A stretch of 64,000 bases of DNA from an uncultured delta proteobacterium. Lineage in GTDB: Bacteria; Desulfobacterota; Binatia; UBA9968. The stretch's first letter is position 1. Each line of letters starts with the position of its first letter. The notes under the pieces were generated by a model, which worked only from the letters and a program-made list of their open reading frames with translations, was not told where the DNA came from and searched no databases. Shown here piece after piece: positions 22,641 to 29,044 of the stretch. The position numbers were made by a program, and so were the translations under genes. The DNA lies in the NCBI GenBank assembly GCA_963745035.1, contig CAVUVW010000013.1, positions 1,632,001 to 1,696,000 on the forward strand, in the 5' to 3' direction.

Positions 22641-22692
22641 GTTCAAATAGTTCAAATCTTCGATCTGAACAATTTGAGCGGCTTGAGCGAGC
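22641..22692. repeat. Short periodic palindromic repeat between convergent genes (possible terminator)
   Basis: GTTCAAATA GTTCAAATC ... TGAACAA TTTGAGCG GCTTGAGCG. Confidence 0.5.
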
Positions 22693-23147
22693 TAGATTTT
22701 ATCCCGTGCCGCTTGCAGCACCTGATGCAGCGGCTCGATGTCGATGACCAAGGACGAGAGCTGCAGTTTTTCCTCGCGCAGTTGATCCGGCACCGCTGCA
22801 ATCACTTCCTCTTCAAGAACGTGATACACGGGAATTTTTAGCGCCACCCCGGCAAGTGGTCCGGCGTAACTCGGATCGCCTTCGGTCACGGTCTCTGCAA
22901 AGACCTCCACCCCGTTGGCTTCACTGTTGCCTAAAACCACCGTCAGATTTTCCGGACCATACTGGTCCGCCAAGCGCCTGATGACTCCCTGGTTTTCGAA
23001 GTTCATCGCGCCTGCGGCGGTTCAGACAAAGCACTCGGTGACTTGAAAAACGACCTCGTAACCTGCGCCTTCGAGGCATTCGGCGATGACCGGACCCGGC
23101 ACTCCGTCACGCTCACCGATGGCGATGATTTTCTTTCCTTTTTCCAT
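22692..23147 (-). CDS. grdA: Glycine/sarcosine/betaine reductase selenoprotein A (Sec at codon 42)
   Basis: GGAGG RBS; ATG 23147 reads [19 protein letters not shown]...TECFV-TGA(23022-23024)-TAAGAM, in frame with ORF 22692-23006 ([22 protein letters not shown]); CxxU motif of GrdA. Confidence 0.93.
22967..23021 (-). promoter_or_regulatory. Putative bacterial SECIS hairpin immediately 3' of the grdA UGA
   Basis: CCGCC/GGCGG and AGGCGC/GCGCUU lower stems; GAUG(A)ACUUC/GGAGUCAUC upper stem; loop GAAAACCAG starts with G, 24 nt after the UGA. Confidence 0.7.
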
Positions 23148-23157
23148 TCGACCTCCG

Positions 23158-24582
23158 CTAAACGTCGTTGCGATCTACCAGGAACGAACAACCGTCGGAC
23201 AATTGCGTCATGCGGCCGAGAAACAGGCTGCCTTTGGCGATCAACAGCGCCTGGCGAATTTTTCCACTGCGCAGGCTTTCCATAGCATGGCCCAGATAGA
23301 CGATGGCCGAGGGAATATGTCCCTGAGTCGGCGCATAGCCTAGCATACCGCGATGGCGCACGAAATCTTCCATCTGGCTTTTCTGGATTTGCCCGCGCAT
23401 CACCGCCAGCGCTGCCAAAGTCAAATAGTTCGTGCGCGGCACGTCGCCGCTGCCCGATGGCACCGTAATCTCGGGATTGTGCAGCTCGACGCCGTAGCGA
23501 TCCACATCCGTCAACTTGAGCCCCAGCTTTGCCAGCGGTTTTTCCGCGAGAGATTCCGCCATCGCCTGCGGCGCCGCTCCGGCCCGGACGGGGTGAAAGG
23601 CGACGGAGTCGAGACGAATCGACGGCTGTCCGGGTTTGGCAGGCGCCAAAATCGCCGCAAAGCTGCCCAGCACGTCTTCAAGAACCGGCATATTCTTTTT
23701 CAAGTGCGATTCGAACTTCATGCCGAGCTTGGCGAGCGAGCCGCCCGCGACCACCGCGACTTTCCTGGCAATGCCCGCCTGAATCAGACTCGCGCCGTGC
23801 ACCATCGCGTACATCGGCCCGGCGCAGAACGCTTTGGTATCCGAACCGGAAGCATTCTCGCAGCCGACGTCTTCGGCAATCGCCTTCGCGAGATTGCCGC
23901 CGCCGCGATTGTAGCGGTCGCCGACCGCTTCCTCGGAGCAGCTGATGACGTAATCGATTTCGCTTCGATCGATCTTGAGCGCGTTGAGTGCGGAGCGCAG
24001 GGAATGAGCTGCGGTAACCTTCGCCGCGATATTTTCCAACAGAATTTCAGCGACGAGATTGGCGTCTTCCTCGTGGCCCTGCTCGAAGGCGCCGATCAAG
24101 CGGTCGCCGGAATAAAGCCCCAGTGCGCCCTTCGCGCAGCGCATCTCGATATCCGCCAGCGAATTCACGCGGGGAGCGCGGCCGATCGCATGCCGTGCCG
24201 CGCATTCGCCAAACCAGCGCTCGTCGAAGGTCACGAGCTCGAACCGGTCCGCGCCGCCGAGTTGTGCGTAAAATCGGTTTTGCTCGACGAGATCACCGAA
24301 ACGTCCCTCGACCGTGGCGCCTTCGATGAGCTTGTCATACCAGGGCTTGGCCAGATCGGTCAATTTTTCCGGCGCCAGATTGCCGATGTAAACCTGATGC
24401 GGCGCATAGGCGACAGCGGCGTTGAAGTCGCGCAGGCGCCCGGCCAATTGCCCGCCGAGGGCGGGACGAGCGCGGATCTCACGCAGCGGCTTAGAGCCGT
24501 AGCGCACCAGGTCCGGCACATGCGCCAACGAATATGAGACACCCTCGATTCCAACACGCACAGGTTTCATTGAATCCCGCAT
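23158..24582 (-). CDS. grdC: Glycine/sarcosine/betaine reductase complex component C, beta subunit (FabH-like fold)
   Basis: [78 protein letters not shown]; start could be 24570. Confidence 0.92.
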
Positions 24583-24928
24583 CTGCTGCCAATTCTCCGT
24601 TTCAGTTTCGTCCCGTGTTCAATTCAACATCGGAAGCTAAATCACGATACCGTTCCATTCATTAACTACTCGGCAAAGGCATGATATTTCAAGAACACAC
24701 CGGCATCGCTCGCGATACAATTGCTCGGCGTGGCTGATGGAGCAGCACCCTGTGTTGTGTTCGTCGCACAACTCTGGAGATAACACCCCATGTCTATTTT
24801 CCCAATCCAAAAATAATCGGTACCTTCCCTAATCACCTCTCGATGGCCTTTCGGCGGCTGAATTTGAAAGTCGTTTTTTCTCTCTTCTGAATTTGCACGG
24901 TTTTCTCCGTCATTCTCTACAGGCGAAT

Positions 24929-24958
24929 TTGACACTTTTACCCCCGTTCGGTTACAAT
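24929..24958 (+). promoter_or_regulatory. Putative sigma70 promoter for the three-gene cassette
   Basis: TTGACA (24929-24934), 18 nt spacer, TACAAT (24953-24958). Confidence 0.65.
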
Positions 24959-25062
24959 TTTTCTTCCCGTGTACACAGCCTAGTCGATGAAAGCAAACTA
25001 GCGAATACGATGACCCGACACTGTTAACAGAATCTTTTTGTGGAGGCGGAGGCAAGAATTCC

Positions 25063-25257
25063 ATGATGGTGCTCCTGTTCACATTTCTTTTTCTAAGCCT
25101 TTTCGAAGCCCGAGCTTATGCCTACCTCGATCCCGGGAGCGGCAGCTACTTGTTCCAGATCATGGTGGCAAGTCTGGTCGGGGCGGCATTTGCGATCAAG
25201 ACCTACTGGATCAAGATCAAAAATTTCGTGAAAGATCTTTTTCAAAAACACCCCTGA
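25063..25257 (+). CDS. Small membrane protein with YLDPGSGS motif
   Basis: GGAGG upstream; hydrophobic leader ending ARAYA, YLDPGSGS, one TM helix, Lys-rich tail; stop overlaps the next start (TGATG). Confidence 0.8.
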   Translation: MMVLLFTFLFLSLFEARAYAYLDPGSGSYLFQIMVASLVGAAFAIKTYWIKIKNFVKDLFQKHP

Positions 25258-26654
25258 TGAGCCCGCCGGAATGCGTTGCTGAAGCGAGTTCCTTTCGTGA
25301 TCCGCATGGCTTTGTTTTTTATCGTGACGGAACCGTCTATCGCCAAATCAACAAACCGCACGAGGCCGCCTTTACTCAACTGATTCAATCGGGACTATAC
25401 GAGTCCTTGGTTGATTCAAAGTTGCTGGTGTCGCACAAAGAAGTCGACGCGGCTCCGGCTCGTGGGGAGGGTTTTTTCAAGATCATCCAACCCGAACGGA
25501 TTCCATTCTTATCGTACCCCTATGAATGGTGTTTCAGCCAGCTTAAGGACGCCGCGCTCGTCACCCTGAATATCCAAAAAAGAGCCCTCGATCTCGGCAT
25601 GTCGCTGCGCGACTGCAGCGCCTATAATATTCAATTCATCCACGGTCGGCCCATTTTGATCGACACTCTGTCATTCGGGATTTACAACGTAGGAGAGCCT
25701 TGGGCCGCATACAAGCAGTTTTGTCAGCATTTTCTTGCTCCTCTAATGCTGATGAGCCACCGGGACATTCGGCTAAATCAGTTGTGCGTGACCGAACTCG
25801 ACGGTATTCCCCTGAAACTGGCGAGAACGTTGCTTTCACATCGTGCTTATGCGAGCTGGCCGGCGTTTTTACACATCTGCCTTCACGCGCATTACGAGAA
25901 TTTTTATAGCCAACGACTCGTGCGAAGGGACTCCGGCGGCAAGCGCTTCAGCAGTCATTCCTTTAGAGGTTTGGTCGACAGCCTCGAAAGCGCCGTCATG
26001 AATCTCACGGTCAAGCAACCTAAGTCGGGATGGCTGACGTATTCCACCGAAGGGCACAACTATAGCGATGATTCGCTCAATCATAAGATGGAAGTCGTAA
26101 ATTCCTATCTGAGAAAGTGCAATCCGCGGGAGGTGTGGGATTTAGGCTCCAACACCGGCGTGTTTAGCCGGATCGCAAGCGAACACCACACCCGGGTGAT
26201 CGCATTCGATCAAGATCCGTACTGTGTCGAAGCCCACTACCTGCAATCCAGGAAAGATGATTTGGACATCCTCCCATTGGTGGCGAATCTTTCCAATCCA
26301 AGTCCCGCCATCGGTTGGGAAAATCAAGAGAGACGCTCGCTTTTAGAGCGCGCCAGCGCAGATACCGTTTTAGCTCTCGCATTGATTCACCACCTGACAA
26401 TCACCAACAATGTACCCCTGGAGAACCTGGCGAAGTTTTTCGCGAAGATTTGTCGTTGGCTGATCATTGAGTTCGTCCCCAAAGAGGATGCCAAGGTTCA
26501 GTTTCTCTTGGCCCATAGAGACGACATCTTCCCGGACTATACCCTGGGTGGCTTTGAGCGAGCATTTTGCCCACGCTTTTCGATCGAGAGCCGCACGGAA
26601 ATTCGCTCATCAAAGAGAATTTTGTTTCTCATGCGGCGACTGCACGAAGCATGA
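25257..26654 (+). CDS. NoeA-like protein: N-terminal kinase-like domain + C-terminal class I SAM methyltransferase
   Basis: SFRDP..FV, ISYPYEW-like PFLSYPYEW, LRDCSAYNIQF, ILIDTLSF; VWDLGSNTGVFS, IAFDQD, LALALIHHL; ATG 25257 coupled to the upstream TGA. Confidence 0.85.
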   Translation: MSPPECVAEASSFRDPHGFVFYRDGTVYRQINKPHEAAFTQLIQSGLYESLVDSKLLVSHKEVDAAPARGEGFFKIIQPERIPFLSYPYEWCFSQLKDAALVTLNIQKRALDLGMSLRDCSAYNIQFIHGRPILIDTLSFGIYNVGEPWAAYKQFCQHFLAPLMLMSHRDIRLNQLCVTELDGIPLKLARTLLSHRAYASWPAFLHICLHAHYENFYSQRLVRRDSGGKRFSSHSFRGLVDSLESAVMNLTVKQPKSGWLTYSTEGHNYSDDSLNHKMEVVNSYLRKCNPREVWDLGSNTGVFSRIASEHHTRVIAFDQDPYCVEAHYLQSRKDDLDILPLVANLSNPSPAIGWENQERRSLLERASADTVLALALIHHLTITNNVPLENLAKFFAKICRWLIIEFVPKEDAKVQFLLAHRDDIFPDYTLGGFERAFCPRFSIESRTEIRSSKRILFLMRRLHEA

Positions 26655-28207
26655 AGCGTTCGCTGGTTTTCCACCCGTTTCTCATCGCGCTATTTCCGGT
26701 AATCAGCATTCTCGCCGAAAACACCGGGGAATTGGAGTATGCTCCGTTGATACCGGCAGCAGTCGCATGCCTGGCAATGGTGTTGGTCGTTCTGTGTATT
26801 TGTCAGATCTTACTAAGAGACATGCTCAGAACCGGCCTCGTTGTTTCCGGTTTCCTTATCTTCTTTTTTTCCCCTTTCCATGTTTTTACAGGCTTGGCCA
26901 ATTGGCTTGCCGATTATTCAGGCGAGGAATGGCATTTATCCATCGGTCCGTTTTTGATGGTATGGATCCTGGCGGTCTCCGGGTACATTTATTTTTTTGC
27001 CAAAAAAGCGACGGGCCTGAAGCAACTCAACACGATTTTTAATGTGGTTTCTCTCTGCCTGATAAGCGGCCCGGTATTGACCATCGCCGTTGTGAAGTTC
27101 TCCGAAAAGATCGACTGGTCAAGCATTCATCAGCAGCAACAGACGGAGCCGCTCGTTGCGGCGGTAGCGCCGAAAAGTCAATTGCCGGATATTTATTACA
27201 TCATCATGGATCGTTATGCCGGTTCGGAGACGTTGAAGACGACTTACGGCTTCGATAACAAAGAATTTTTGACTTACCTTCGCGCGAAGGGATTTTACGT
27301 TGCCGCTGACAGCGCCGCGAATTATCCGTCCACGACACAATCTTTGGCGTCTTCGTTAAACTTTCAATACCTCAACTACGTAGGAAAATTCGTCGATCCG
27401 GAATCGAACAGTTGGATACCCCTTCAGATGCTGTTGCAAGATCACAAGGTCGGACAATTTCTCAAGAACATGGGATACCGGTACATTCATCTGGGTTCTT
27501 GGTGGGAACCGACCAGGAAAAACAAGTTGGCCGACGAGACCGTTTACTTTGTTCCTTTTCCGGAATCATTTTACACGTTATACGGCACAACAATGTTGTA
27601 TCCAATTTCATCCGCACTTCGCATGCTGGACCTTCGCTATGAGCACTGGCGAGGACATCGCCGCCAGTTCGAGAATCTCCTGAAAACGGTCGAAGTCAAA
27701 GGACCTAAGTTCGTGTTCGCACATTTCCTCTTGCCGCACAGCCCCTACGTATTCGCCCGCAATGGCGATTATGTACCTTTCGATCACGCAAGCAAACAAG
27801 GGTTGGAAGCCGCCTATATCGACCAGCTAATCTCCACGAACCGTCTACTACAAGGGACCCTCGACAGTTTGCTTTCACAAAGCAAACAACCACCGATAAT
27901 CATCCTGCAGGCGGACGAAGGGCCGTGGCCCCACCGATATGAACTCGACCAGAACAAATTCGATTGGCGCTTGGCGACCAATGCAGAAATCAAGCAAAAA
28001 ATGAGAATTCTAAACAGCTATTACTTACCCGGCACAGACTCCCGGGCGCTCTATCCGACCATTTCGCCGGTGAATACGTTTCGGGTCATATTCAATCTCT
28101 ATTTTAAGACCAATCTACCGCTTCTACCGGATGAAAGCTTCATCTATCAAGAGCAGCGGCATCCTCACAATCTATCGGATATCTCGTCGCGCTTGCGCCG
28201 GAACTGA
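26651..28207 (+). CDS. Membrane protein with extracytoplasmic alkaline-phosphatase/sulfatase-superfamily (LtaS-like) domain
   Basis: About 5 N-terminal TM helices; PDIYYIIMDRY, NYPSTTQSL, FAHFLLPHSPY, IIILQADEG; ATGA overlap with the upstream gene. Confidence 0.85.
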   Translation: MKRSLVFHPFLIALFPVISILAENTGELEYAPLIPAAVACLAMVLVVLCICQILLRDMLRTGLVVSGFLIFFFSPFHVFTGLANWLADYSGEEWHLSIGPFLMVWILAVSGYIYFFAKKATGLKQLNTIFNVVSLCLISGPVLTIAVVKFSEKIDWSSIHQQQQTEPLVAAVAPKSQLPDIYYIIMDRYAGSETLKTTYGFDNKEFLTYLRAKGFYVAADSAANYPSTTQSLASSLNFQYLNYVGKFVDPESNSWIPLQMLLQDHKVGQFLKNMGYRYIHLGSWWEPTRKNKLADETVYFVPFPESFYTLYGTTMLYPISSALRMLDLRYEHWRGHRRQFENLLKTVEVKGPKFVFAHFLLPHSPYVFARNGDYVPFDHASKQGLEAAYIDQLISTNRLLQGTLDSLLSQSKQPPIIILQADEGPWPHRYELDQNKFDWRLATNAEIKQKMRILNSYYLPGTDSRALYPTISPVNTFRVIFNLYFKTNLPLLPDESFIYQEQRHPHNLSDISSRLRRN

Positions 28208-28309: not shown

Positions 28310-28861
28310 CTAATCCGTGAAAACGTGGTGTCTCAAGAACACCTCGGCATCCCCGCGGGCGAAGAATACCAAGCGAATTTCGTGGATGGCGCTTTCCGCG
28401 CCCAAGAATTCCTCGATCGCGCGCGCGGCTACGTTCGCCGCTTCGTCCTGCGGATAACCGTAAACTCCGGTGGATATCGCCGGAAAAGCGATCGTCGTAA
28501 GACCATTGCTCGCCGCCAACGCTAGCGAGTTGCGGTAGCACGCCGCTAGCAGCTCGGCTTGGTCGCGCCCGCCCCGGCGGTACACCGGCCCGACCGTGTG
28601 GATGACGTGTTTGGCCGGCAGGTTGCCGGCCGTGGTGATCACCGCCTGACCCGTCGGCAAGCCGTCCGGATACCGTTCCCGGCGAATCTGCCGGCACTCC
28701 TCTAAAATTGCCTTTCCGCCGGCTCGATGAATCGCGCCATCGACGCCGCCGCCGCCGAGCAACGTGCTATTGGCGGCATTGACGATCGCGTCAGTGTCTT
28801 CCTTGGTAATATCGCCGACTTTAATGCGCACGCGGCCGGCCAGAAAGCTTGCTAACTCCAT
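28310..28861 (-). CDS. ymdB: Macro domain O-acetyl-ADP-ribose deacetylase (YmdB-like)
   Basis: GDIT, AIVNAANSTLLGGGGVDGAIHRAGG, VIHTVGP, FPAISTGVYGYP. Confidence 0.93.
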   Translation of the reverse strand: MELASFLAGRVRIKVGDITKEDTDAIVNAANSTLLGGGGVDGAIHRAGGKAILEECRQIRRERYPDGLPTGQAVITTAGNLPAKHVIHTVGPVYRRGGRDQAELLAACYRNSLALAASNGLTTIAFPAISTGVYGYPQDEAANVAARAIEEFLGAESAIHEIRLVFFARGDAEVFLRHHVFTD

Positions 28862-29044
28862 GGAGCACCCGATCGGAAGTTTTGATGGTCGTTCGCGAGT
28901 TTCCCGCGACATCTCTGATCGTCACCTTAGCGAAATTGAGGACGGATGGGAATCGCGGCGGAGCGCGCCGCCGCCCTTGACTCGCGCGCGAGGATCAAGT
29001 GAAAGTACGATACCGTCCGTTTTTTCAAACGCGCGGGTCAAACG

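Follow-up and report, generated by a model that had tools for sequence, protein, structure and literature searches.

A NoeA-Like Protein from a Binatia Genome: Predicted Kinase-Like and Methyltransferase Domains in a Three-Gene Cassette

What does a protein do that seems to carry a protein-kinase-like domain and a methyltransferase on the same chain? The question is raised by a gene in a stretch of 64,000 nucleotides from an uncultured delta proteobacterium of the Binatia (assembly GCA_963745035.1, contig CAVUVW010000013.1, positions 1,632,001 to 1,696,000). This whole stretch is called the window below, and coordinates count from its first letter. A sequence-only reading of the window had taken the first half of the product, here called the NoeA-like protein, for a hidden kinase-like domain and the second half for a methyltransferase, that is, for the two domains of WbdD in reversed order. 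The architectural part of that interpretation stands, with both folds and their order relative to WbdD, while its novelty does not. Its further idea, that a glycan or small substrate would be phosphorylated and then methylated, stays a proposal. The same architecture was predicted in 2022 on bioinformatic grounds for Lani_1194 and its homologue NoeA, in which Krysinska et al. (2022, Sci Rep; PMC9758233) recognise a kinase-like domain and, after it, a class I methyltransferase. Membership of the NoeA family and the presence of both folds can be held with great confidence. The reading favoured here, with a probability of about 0.55 for the whole of it, is an enzyme built of the two domains that would act on an envelope precursor together with the partners encoded in its cassette.

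Membership and Spread of the Family

The founding member of the NoeA family is a rhizobial host-range gene. The protein from the window is 36% identical to NoeA of the Sinorhizobium meliloti plasmid pSymA over query residues 10-461 (E 2e-82). This is homology over the full length. Among plasmid records 65 are matched by the protein, 57 of them from Sinorhizobium, and several of the matches are annotated noeA. Judged by these sequence comparisons, the product of 25257-26654 is a member of the NoeA/Lani_1194 family; the link to Lani_1194 runs via NoeA, which is named as its homologue in PMC9758233. The same source counts about two thousand kinase-domain homologues, 94% of which have the methyltransferase as well.

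A word-index search gave at least 8000 candidate homologues, and an exhaustive search returned 6216 clusters at 50% identity with E ≤ 1e-3, of which 1877 reach E ≤ 1e-30. Nearly all of the 150 matches listed from the exhaustive search cover about 450 residues, and the length of the family is steady at about 460 amino acids; in six longer homologues (486-593 amino acids) Pfam reveals no additional domain. When one genome per species was scanned, relatives were found in at least 598 of 185,579 species genomes (598 of the 599 pattern-matching stretches), and these are spread over many bacterial phyla and some archaea. The conservation counts given below refer to 123 aligned sequences, which share 38-51% identity with the query.

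When it comes to the N-terminal domain on its own, a word-index search with its profile mostly gave truncated copies of the same family and found neither a bridging family nor an alternative fusion. In the ESM Atlas a homologue (P0033) matched only clusters of its own family, none of which is named as a kinase. The Atlas also has clusters of "hypothetical proteins" of 234-263 amino acids that match the N-terminal domain alone, with template-modelling (TM) scores of 0.91-0.95. Stand-alone kinase-like domains may exist, though many short database matches are contig-end fragments.

An Atypical Kinase-Like Domain

The motifs quoted in the sequence-only reading are all found in the translation of 25257-26654, in the order in which they were given. 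VYRQI lies at residues 27-31, IIQPERI at 76-82, LGMSLRDCSAYNIQF at 113-127, and PILIDTLSF at 132-140; in the methyltransferase half DLGSNTGVFS is found at 295-304 and LALIHHL at 374-380. The key residues of the first half hardly vary between homologues, R29 being kept in 123, D119 in 121, N124 in 122, and D136 in 122 of the 123 sequences, and the motifs are for this reason regarded as more than chance. No Pfam or NCBIfam model falls on residues 1-265, even at E ≤ 10, so the domain stays hidden from routine annotation. In the PDB the N-terminal domain has 0 matches at E ≤ 10, whether searched for by sequence or by profile, and a sequence search with the whole protein gave one chance match to a ribonuclease only.

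AlphaFold2 (AF2) modelled residues 1-265 with a predicted local distance difference test score (pLDDT) of 94.7 and a predicted TM score (pTM) of 0.91. In the model the secondary-structure elements follow the canonical order of a kinase: a strand holding R29 (26-32), helices, a strand, a long helix (93-112), a strand (115-117), the loop with D119 and N124, two strands (125-128 and 131-134), and D136 immediately past the second of these. The four motifs fall at β3, the hinge, the catalytic loop, and the DFG position, respectively. Foldseek found at least 147 matches to this model in the PDB at E ≤ 1e-3 (best E 4.3e-5, TM scores 0.31-0.45). Among the matches listed all are kinases or kinase-like proteins, such as PknG, MSK1, the amicoumacin kinase AmiN, CK2, ROCK1, and AceK; two pre-40S ribosome entries, for which the matched chain is not named, are listed as well. 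VIA-align against 48,161 chains gave 60 chains at Z ≥ 8, and the best 50 of these are all kinases or pseudokinases. For these 50 matches Z is 8.1-9.6, with 168-210 residues aligned at a root-mean-square deviation (rmsd) of 4.0-5.4 Å over a model span of 1-262.

Profile-profile comparisons were made with hhalign, using kinase alignments (APH, Pkinase, and Kdo) built from the genomes of relatives. Against APH, D119, N124, and D136 fall on the H-x-D..N..D pattern of that family with a score of 30.9 (P 0.0023). None of 100 column shuffles reached this score (15.3 ± 2.8, maximum 23.5), the reversed query scored 15.0, and the C-terminal domain, used as a control, gave P 0.39.

On the strength of the Foldseek and VIA-align matches, the canonical order of the elements, and the placement of the motifs, the prediction that residues 1 to about 252 adopt a protein-kinase-like fold holds. 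The sequence-only reading had assigned the motifs to these same places, had proposed the comparison with protein-kinase-like folds reported above, and had staked its idea on the conservation of the Asp, Asn, and Asp residues; on each of these points the model and the alignment agree with it.

The Methyltransferase Domain and Its Likeness to WbdD

For the second half of the protein Pfam gives weak matches to Methyltransf_11, Methyltransf_12, Methyltransf_23, and Methyltransf_25 at residues 290-402 (best E 0.0024, under the gathering score), and NCBIfam gives nothing meaningful. In motif I D295 is kept in 123, G297 in 121, N299 in 120, and G301 in 121 of the aligned sequences. The acidic D318 is kept in 116, and the two residues of the His-His pair, H378 and H379, in 121 and 123, respectively. 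K277, E405, and R454 are invariant, while R365 and R359 are nearly so. The full-length model has a pLDDT of 95.2 and a pTM of 0.94, and the latter implies that the two domains are packed in a fixed arrangement.

In VIA-align the METHYLTRANSFERASE domain (model residues 253-465) reaches Z values of up to 18.8. The best matches are ChlM (18.8), NodS (18.7), and MePCE (18.4), BCDIN3D and WbdD both score 16.9, and the 50 matches listed span 16.8-18.8. These scores, together with the weak Pfam matches, support a class I S-adenosylmethionine (SAM)-dependent methyltransferase fold, as had been claimed for this half.

WbdD of Escherichia coli O9a, for which the structures 4azs, 4azt, 4ax8, and 4uw0 are found in the PDB, is the top PDB match in the profile search (E 0.0023, methyltransferase domain only). 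With the full-length model it takes ranks 1-3 in Foldseek (E 6.8e-8, the next match having 9.5e-8). Model residues 253-465 align to residues 6-224, the N-terminal methyltransferase of WbdD, with an rmsd of 3.0 Å over 187 residues (VIA-align), and this fits the reversed domain order that had been proposed. WbdD is still not specially close, since none of the 50 VIA-align matches listed falls more than 2 Z units short of the top score. In a HMMER alignment H132 and H133 of WbdD fall on H378 and H379, the FHH of WbdD being placed on the iHH of the family (numbering from 4uw0_A). According to PMC3482155, H132, H133, R203, and Y16 of WbdD are needed for phosphate methylation, and NodS and RebM have two histidines or two tyrosines at the position of the His-His pair.

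The Three-Gene Cassette

Three genes that run in the same direction encode a microprotein, the NoeA-like protein, and a NoeB-like protein (Table 1), with the NoeA-like gene in the middle. The genes overlap in TGATG (25255-25259) and ATGA (26651-26654). In the first of these the stop codon of the microprotein gene, TGA at 25255-25257, shares one base with the ATG of the NoeA-like gene, while in the second the ATG of the NoeB-like gene overlaps the stop codon of the NoeA-like gene. Judged from these overlaps, the cassette is translationally coupled. The NoeA-like gene probably begins with the ATG at 25257, since the stop of the upstream 64-codon open reading frame (ORF) overlaps it and homologues align from residues 7-11; a longer ORF with a TTG start, from 25038, is not needed given this ATG. 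A hydropathy scan finds no transmembrane segment in the NoeA-like protein. The promoter-like site might be a candidate promoter of the cassette but is a lead only, because the three such sites in the region equal the mean of 3.0 in shuffled sequences and so represent no excess. An Rfam scan of 22-30 kb found no RNA family.

Table 1. Positions of the cassette, its predicted domains, and adjoining genes in the window.
Feature	Position	Strand	Description
Promoter-like site	24929..24958	+	TTGACA, 18-nt spacer, TACAAT; 11/12 matches; about 105 nt 5' of the microprotein start
Membrane microprotein, 64 amino acids	25063..25257	+	hydrophobic N-terminal segment, A-Y-L-D-P-G-S-G-S, one transmembrane helix, basic tail
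NoeA-like gene	25257..26654	+	translates to a soluble protein of 465 amino acids
Predicted atypical protein-kinase-like domain, residues 1-252	25257..26012	+	R29 at β3; D119/N124 in catalytic loop; D136 at DFG position; SFRDPxG N-terminal
Predicted class I SAM-dependent methyltransferase, residues 253-465 plus stop	26013..26654	+	motif I D295-L-G-S-N-T-G, acidic D318, H378-H379
NoeB-like membrane protein, 518 amino acids	26651..28207	+	five N-terminal transmembrane segments and alkaline-phosphatase/sulfatase-superfamily domain
GrdA (glycine reductase selenoprotein A) gene	22692-23147	-	in-frame TGA in C-F-V-U
Reductase complex C beta subunit gene	23158-24582	-	adjoins the GrdA gene
Macro-domain gene	28310-28912	-	Pfam Macro, E 2.3e-48; directly 3' of the cassette

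No other neighbour is linked as tightly to NoeA as the microprotein. A motif scan places it directly 5' of the NoeA homologue at 70 loci out of 83, as against 39-44 loci for NoeB; at least 220 nt of upstream DNA is present at 75 of the 83, and tblastn finds the microprotein in 73 of them all. It is 35% identical (E 3e-13) to an ORF of 71 amino acids between nodL and noeA on pSymA, where the order 71-amino-acid ORF, noeA, noeB matches that of the cassette. This small ORF is listed as a gene in one of three plasmid records inspected. Homologues share an invariant Y-x-D-P-G-x-G-S motif, and in 40 aligned microproteins Y21, D23, P24, G27, S28, and Q32 are invariant. The hydropathy scan gives two hydrophobic segments. 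The microprotein has no Pfam or NCBIfam match, and a literature search with its motif (DPGTGS and similar) gave unrelated papers only. A complex prediction for the NoeA-like protein and the microprotein, run without controls, gave scores of 0.06 and 0.02, where the mark is 0.32, and bears on binding in neither direction. PMC9758233 reports Lani_1193 homologues in 65% and Lani_1195 homologues in 38% of 816 neighbourhoods, and it assigns an alkaline-phosphatase fold to NoeB/Lani_1195. We infer that Lani_1193 is the counterpart of the microprotein.

The similarity of the NoeB-like protein to S. meliloti NoeB is weak (E 1e-5). A profile of 26 of its homologues matches sulfatases in the PDB (best E 4.5e-7), with D187 and T228 nearly invariant and H358, H363, and D422 invariant, and its five hydrophobic segments all lie within residues 4-147. 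By tblastn 39 of 83 loci have a homologue close to the NoeA gene, and clustering gives 44 of 80; the homologue from Singulisphaera is annotated "LTA synthase family protein". At some loci the NoeA homologue has more than one NoeB-like or sulfatase-family gene beside it (56 copies in 44 loci; for example loci L026, L048, and L065), and a separate cluster of Sulfatase-family proteins of 736 amino acids is represented beside the NoeA homologue in three loci.

Proposed Mechanism and Its Alternatives

In the favoured reading the NoeA-like protein is a soluble, cytoplasmic, two-domain enzyme. The kinase-like domain would phosphorylate a hydroxyl group using ATP-Mg; D119 would be the base, N124 and D136 would bind the metal, and R29 would substitute for the β3 lysine. 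A precursor of the envelope on the cytoplasmic side may serve as acceptor, and this could be a sugar or a lipid-linked or lipid head group. Next, the product of the kinase would be methylated by the methyltransferase, in the simplest case at the phosphate just added, which is what WbdD does. Outside the membrane the NoeB-like protein, with its five transmembrane segments and alkaline-phosphatase fold, would use or install the phospho-containing group, while the microprotein would serve as a membrane-bound third subunit. These steps differ in how firmly they can be put forward. That the kinase-like domain is an active phosphotransferase is somewhat more probable than not. Methylation of the phosphate itself is less probable than not and is proposed by analogy with WbdD, with some support from the retention of the WbdD-type His-His pair and by several invariant arginine and lysine residues.

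A number of observations weigh against this reading, and some of them are what the alternatives build on. The fold matches of the N-terminal domain are only moderate in Z, rmsd, and TM score, and the profile-profile support is narrow in that it is significant for APH only. Pkinase gives the same register with P 0.34, and for Kdo the best local alignment lies in a different, probably spurious region (P 0.012). In the literature searched on NoeA, NoeB, and Lani_1194 no biochemical characterisation of any family member was found. Among the ten neighbouring ORFs, at about 18.9-30.8 kb, there is no transporter and no glycosyltransferase, and no glycan-synthesis genes lie beside the cassette. Glycan-type neighbours are also rare across the family, in 3-7 loci each of 80; other recurrent neighbours are a sugar-nucleotide epimerase/dehydratase (7 loci), a ManC-like nucleotidyltransferase (6), a GT2 glycosyltransferase (4), a further sulfatase-family protein (3), and a cytidylyltransferase (3).

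The alternative that survives best, possible though improbable, keeps both domains active and sends the methyl group elsewhere, by N-, O-, or C-methylation at another position of the same substrate, with the N-methylation of Nod-factor precursors by NodS as the analogue. In a variant of it the methyltransferase modifies an amino-alcohol head group. WbdD scores below ChlM and NodS in VIA-align and lies at most 2 Z units from the other matches listed. The His-His pair is consistent with phosphate methylation but not diagnostic of it, since NodS and RebM share the His/Tyr pair. Phosphoethanolamine and phosphatidylethanolamine N-methyltransferases are found among the weak matches (4krg, E 0.02; 8ys9, E 6.8e-7), and N347-P348-S349-P350, which we take to resemble the (D/N)PP(Y/F) motif of amino-methyltransferases, is well conserved (102, 119, 82, and 99 of 123). 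A class I fold is, however, not predictive of the acceptor atom, and the phosphate O-methyltransferases MePCE, BCDIN3D, and WbdD score equally well. Moreover, K277, R454, R365, and R359 suit an anionic substrate. A search for choline kinase (PF01633) in 101 genomes of the phylum gave no match, and its controls were equally blank, which makes it uninformative on the amino-alcohol variant.

It is somewhat less probable that the N-terminal domain has a kinase fold but performs no phosphotransfer, being either a pseudokinase-like module that binds substrate or nucleotide or a domain with other chemistry, for instance nucleotidylylation. The β3 lysine is replaced by arginine in every aligned sequence, SFRDPxG stands where a canonical glycine-rich loop would be, and the top VIA-align match is the pseudokinase IRAK3. 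The conservation list holds no nearly invariant glutamate between residues 30 and 75, so that of the features of a protein-kinase-like domain the bilobal fold and the Asp/Asn/Asp residues are present while the pair of β3 lysine and αC glutamate is missing. Arginine for lysine without an ion-pair glutamate also occurs in pseudokinases and in kinase-fold enzymes of other chemistry. On the other hand, pseudokinases usually lose at least one of the catalytic Asp/Asn/Asp residues, and here 121-122 of 123 sequences keep the catalytic and metal-binding D119, N124, and D136 at an identity to the query of only 38-51%. Lani_1194 is similar according to PMC9758233: its R38 is equivalent to K72 of PKA, the equivalents of D166, N171, and D184 are conserved, and an ion-pair glutamate is not identifiable there either. 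With moderate fold scores and an arginine for the lysine, the catalytic competence of the domain is a matter we infer.

Far less probable is that the microprotein is itself the substrate or a carrier, its Ser28 or Tyr21 being modified by the kinase-like domain and the product then acted on by the methyltransferase and the NoeB-like protein. The cassette would then be a three-part envelope-modification machine, again a doubtful proposal, in which NoeA phosphorylates the Ser or Tyr of the microprotein and then methylates or methyl-caps it before or during membrane insertion, and the outward-facing NoeB-like protein transfers or removes the group. If this were true, it would represent a new modified membrane peptide system in more than 20 bacterial phyla and some archaea. 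The microprotein has the tightest linkage to NoeA, its stop codon overlaps the NoeA-like start, and its invariant residues include a tyrosine and a serine. There is no direct support, a structural subunit explains the tight linkage equally well, and by the positive-inside rule the motif would face outward, away from the soluble cytoplasmic NoeA.

Very unlikely indeed is an O-antigen chain terminator that is of the WbdD type but has permuted domains. The two proteins have a kinase-fold domain and a class I SAM methyltransferase on one chain, so both enzyme classes are the same, and WbdD heads the PDB profile and Foldseek matches as described above. The alignment to WbdD is nevertheless confined to the methyltransferase domain. 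In WbdD the methyltransferase comes first and the kinase follows, whereas here the kinase-like domain (1-252) precedes the methyltransferase (253-465). WbdD continues into a long C-terminal coiled coil, whereas the last element here is a methyltransferase strand, residues 455-461 of 465. WbdD is encoded in an ABC-transporter-dependent O-polysaccharide locus, whereas no such locus is formed by the ten neighbouring ORFs, among which neither wzm/wzt nor mannosyltransferase genes were found. Domain order, the missing coiled coil, and locus type rule out membership of the WbdD family, and PMC9758233 also sets its kinase-methyltransferase families apart from WbdD.

A protein methyltransferase of the PrmA (ribosomal protein L11) type, suggested by the name "ribosomal protein L11 methylase PrmA" that the Joint Genome Institute (JGI) gives to several homologues, is rejected as hardly conceivable, as no PrmA model is found among the Pfam and NCBIfam matches even at E ≤ 1, the N-terminal 250 residues are kinase-like, and the gene context is that of membrane and envelope genes and not ribosomal.

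Genomic Setting and Origin

The ten neighbouring ORFs give oxidoreductase, NMT1, GrdA, reductase C beta, macro, and HAD matches. The G+C content at 24001-28000 is 0.53 and 0.50, as against 0.56-0.62 elsewhere in the window, and this dip coincides with the cassette. No near orthologue of the NoeA-like protein was found in the 12 genomes of the same genus that were searched; two of these carry a copy that is about 30% identical, one of the 12 is unpublished, and one genome of the same order has a copy that is 53% identical and placed elsewhere in the tree. A FastTree phylogeny of 100 rows groups the protein with metagenome proteins 64-74% identical to it, in a clade of 19 rows that has full support. 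One member of the clade is labelled Candidatus Binatia, and phyla are intermingled elsewhere in the tree. The G+C dip on the cassette and the lack of near orthologues in those 12 genomes suggest horizontal acquisition, and the picture fits an accessory, horizontally moving cassette.

The GrdA gene is seen in a plain ORF list only past its in-frame TGA (Pfam GRDA positions 47-146). The macro-domain gene on the other side of the cassette, which lies on the opposite strand, has no evident link to it.

Significance

The gene in the window is an ordinary further member of the known NoeA family and adds no new principle. The family itself matters because of its size, with its 6216 clusters and at least 598 species genomes. 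For biochemical work the independent confirmation of the fold and the His-His pair in common with the phosphate-methylating site of WbdD may be of use, as may the very tight linkage of NoeA to a small ORF that two of the three inspected plasmid records leave unannotated. The cassette is compact, translationally coupled by its overlaps, apparently mobile, and from a non-symbiont, and it could suit heterologous reconstitution.

Comparison with Known Systems

When it comes to the kinase half, WbdD and the NoeA-like protein differ: the kinase of WbdD is eukaryotic-like according to PMC3482155, whereas the domain described here has an arginine for the β3 lysine. The contrast that PMC9758233 draws is likewise between WbdD and the NoeA/Lani_1194 family.

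APH (PF01636) is the only known kinase family with a significant profile-profile match to the N-terminal domain, and its catalytic D..N and metal-binding D are in register with those of the NoeA-like protein. The APH-like amicoumacin kinase AmiN is also in the top Foldseek matches of the domain (E 9e-5). The match to the APH profile, however, spans only 27 columns with a probability of 12.6%, the Pfam APH model is not matched, and the N-lobe motifs, with SFRDPxG and arginine for lysine, are unlike those of APH.

The NoeB-like protein is presumably built like the membrane phosphotransferases of the EptA/LtaS type. It shares with them the five N-terminal transmembrane segments, a domain of the alkaline-phosphatase superfamily, and conserved Asp, Thr, and His residues. 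It differs in that its profile matches in the PDB are soluble sulfatases and in that the Pfam Sulfatase model is not matched.

The nodL-noeA-noeB operon of S. meliloti pSymA shares several features with the cassette. The domain architecture, the arginine at β3, and the Asp/Asn/Asp residues are the same, and in both places a small ORF lies 5' and a NoeB-type gene 3' of the NoeA gene. The copy in the window is set apart by its surroundings: nodL and the nod box are absent, and the cassette is flanked instead by glycine-reductase and macro-domain genes.

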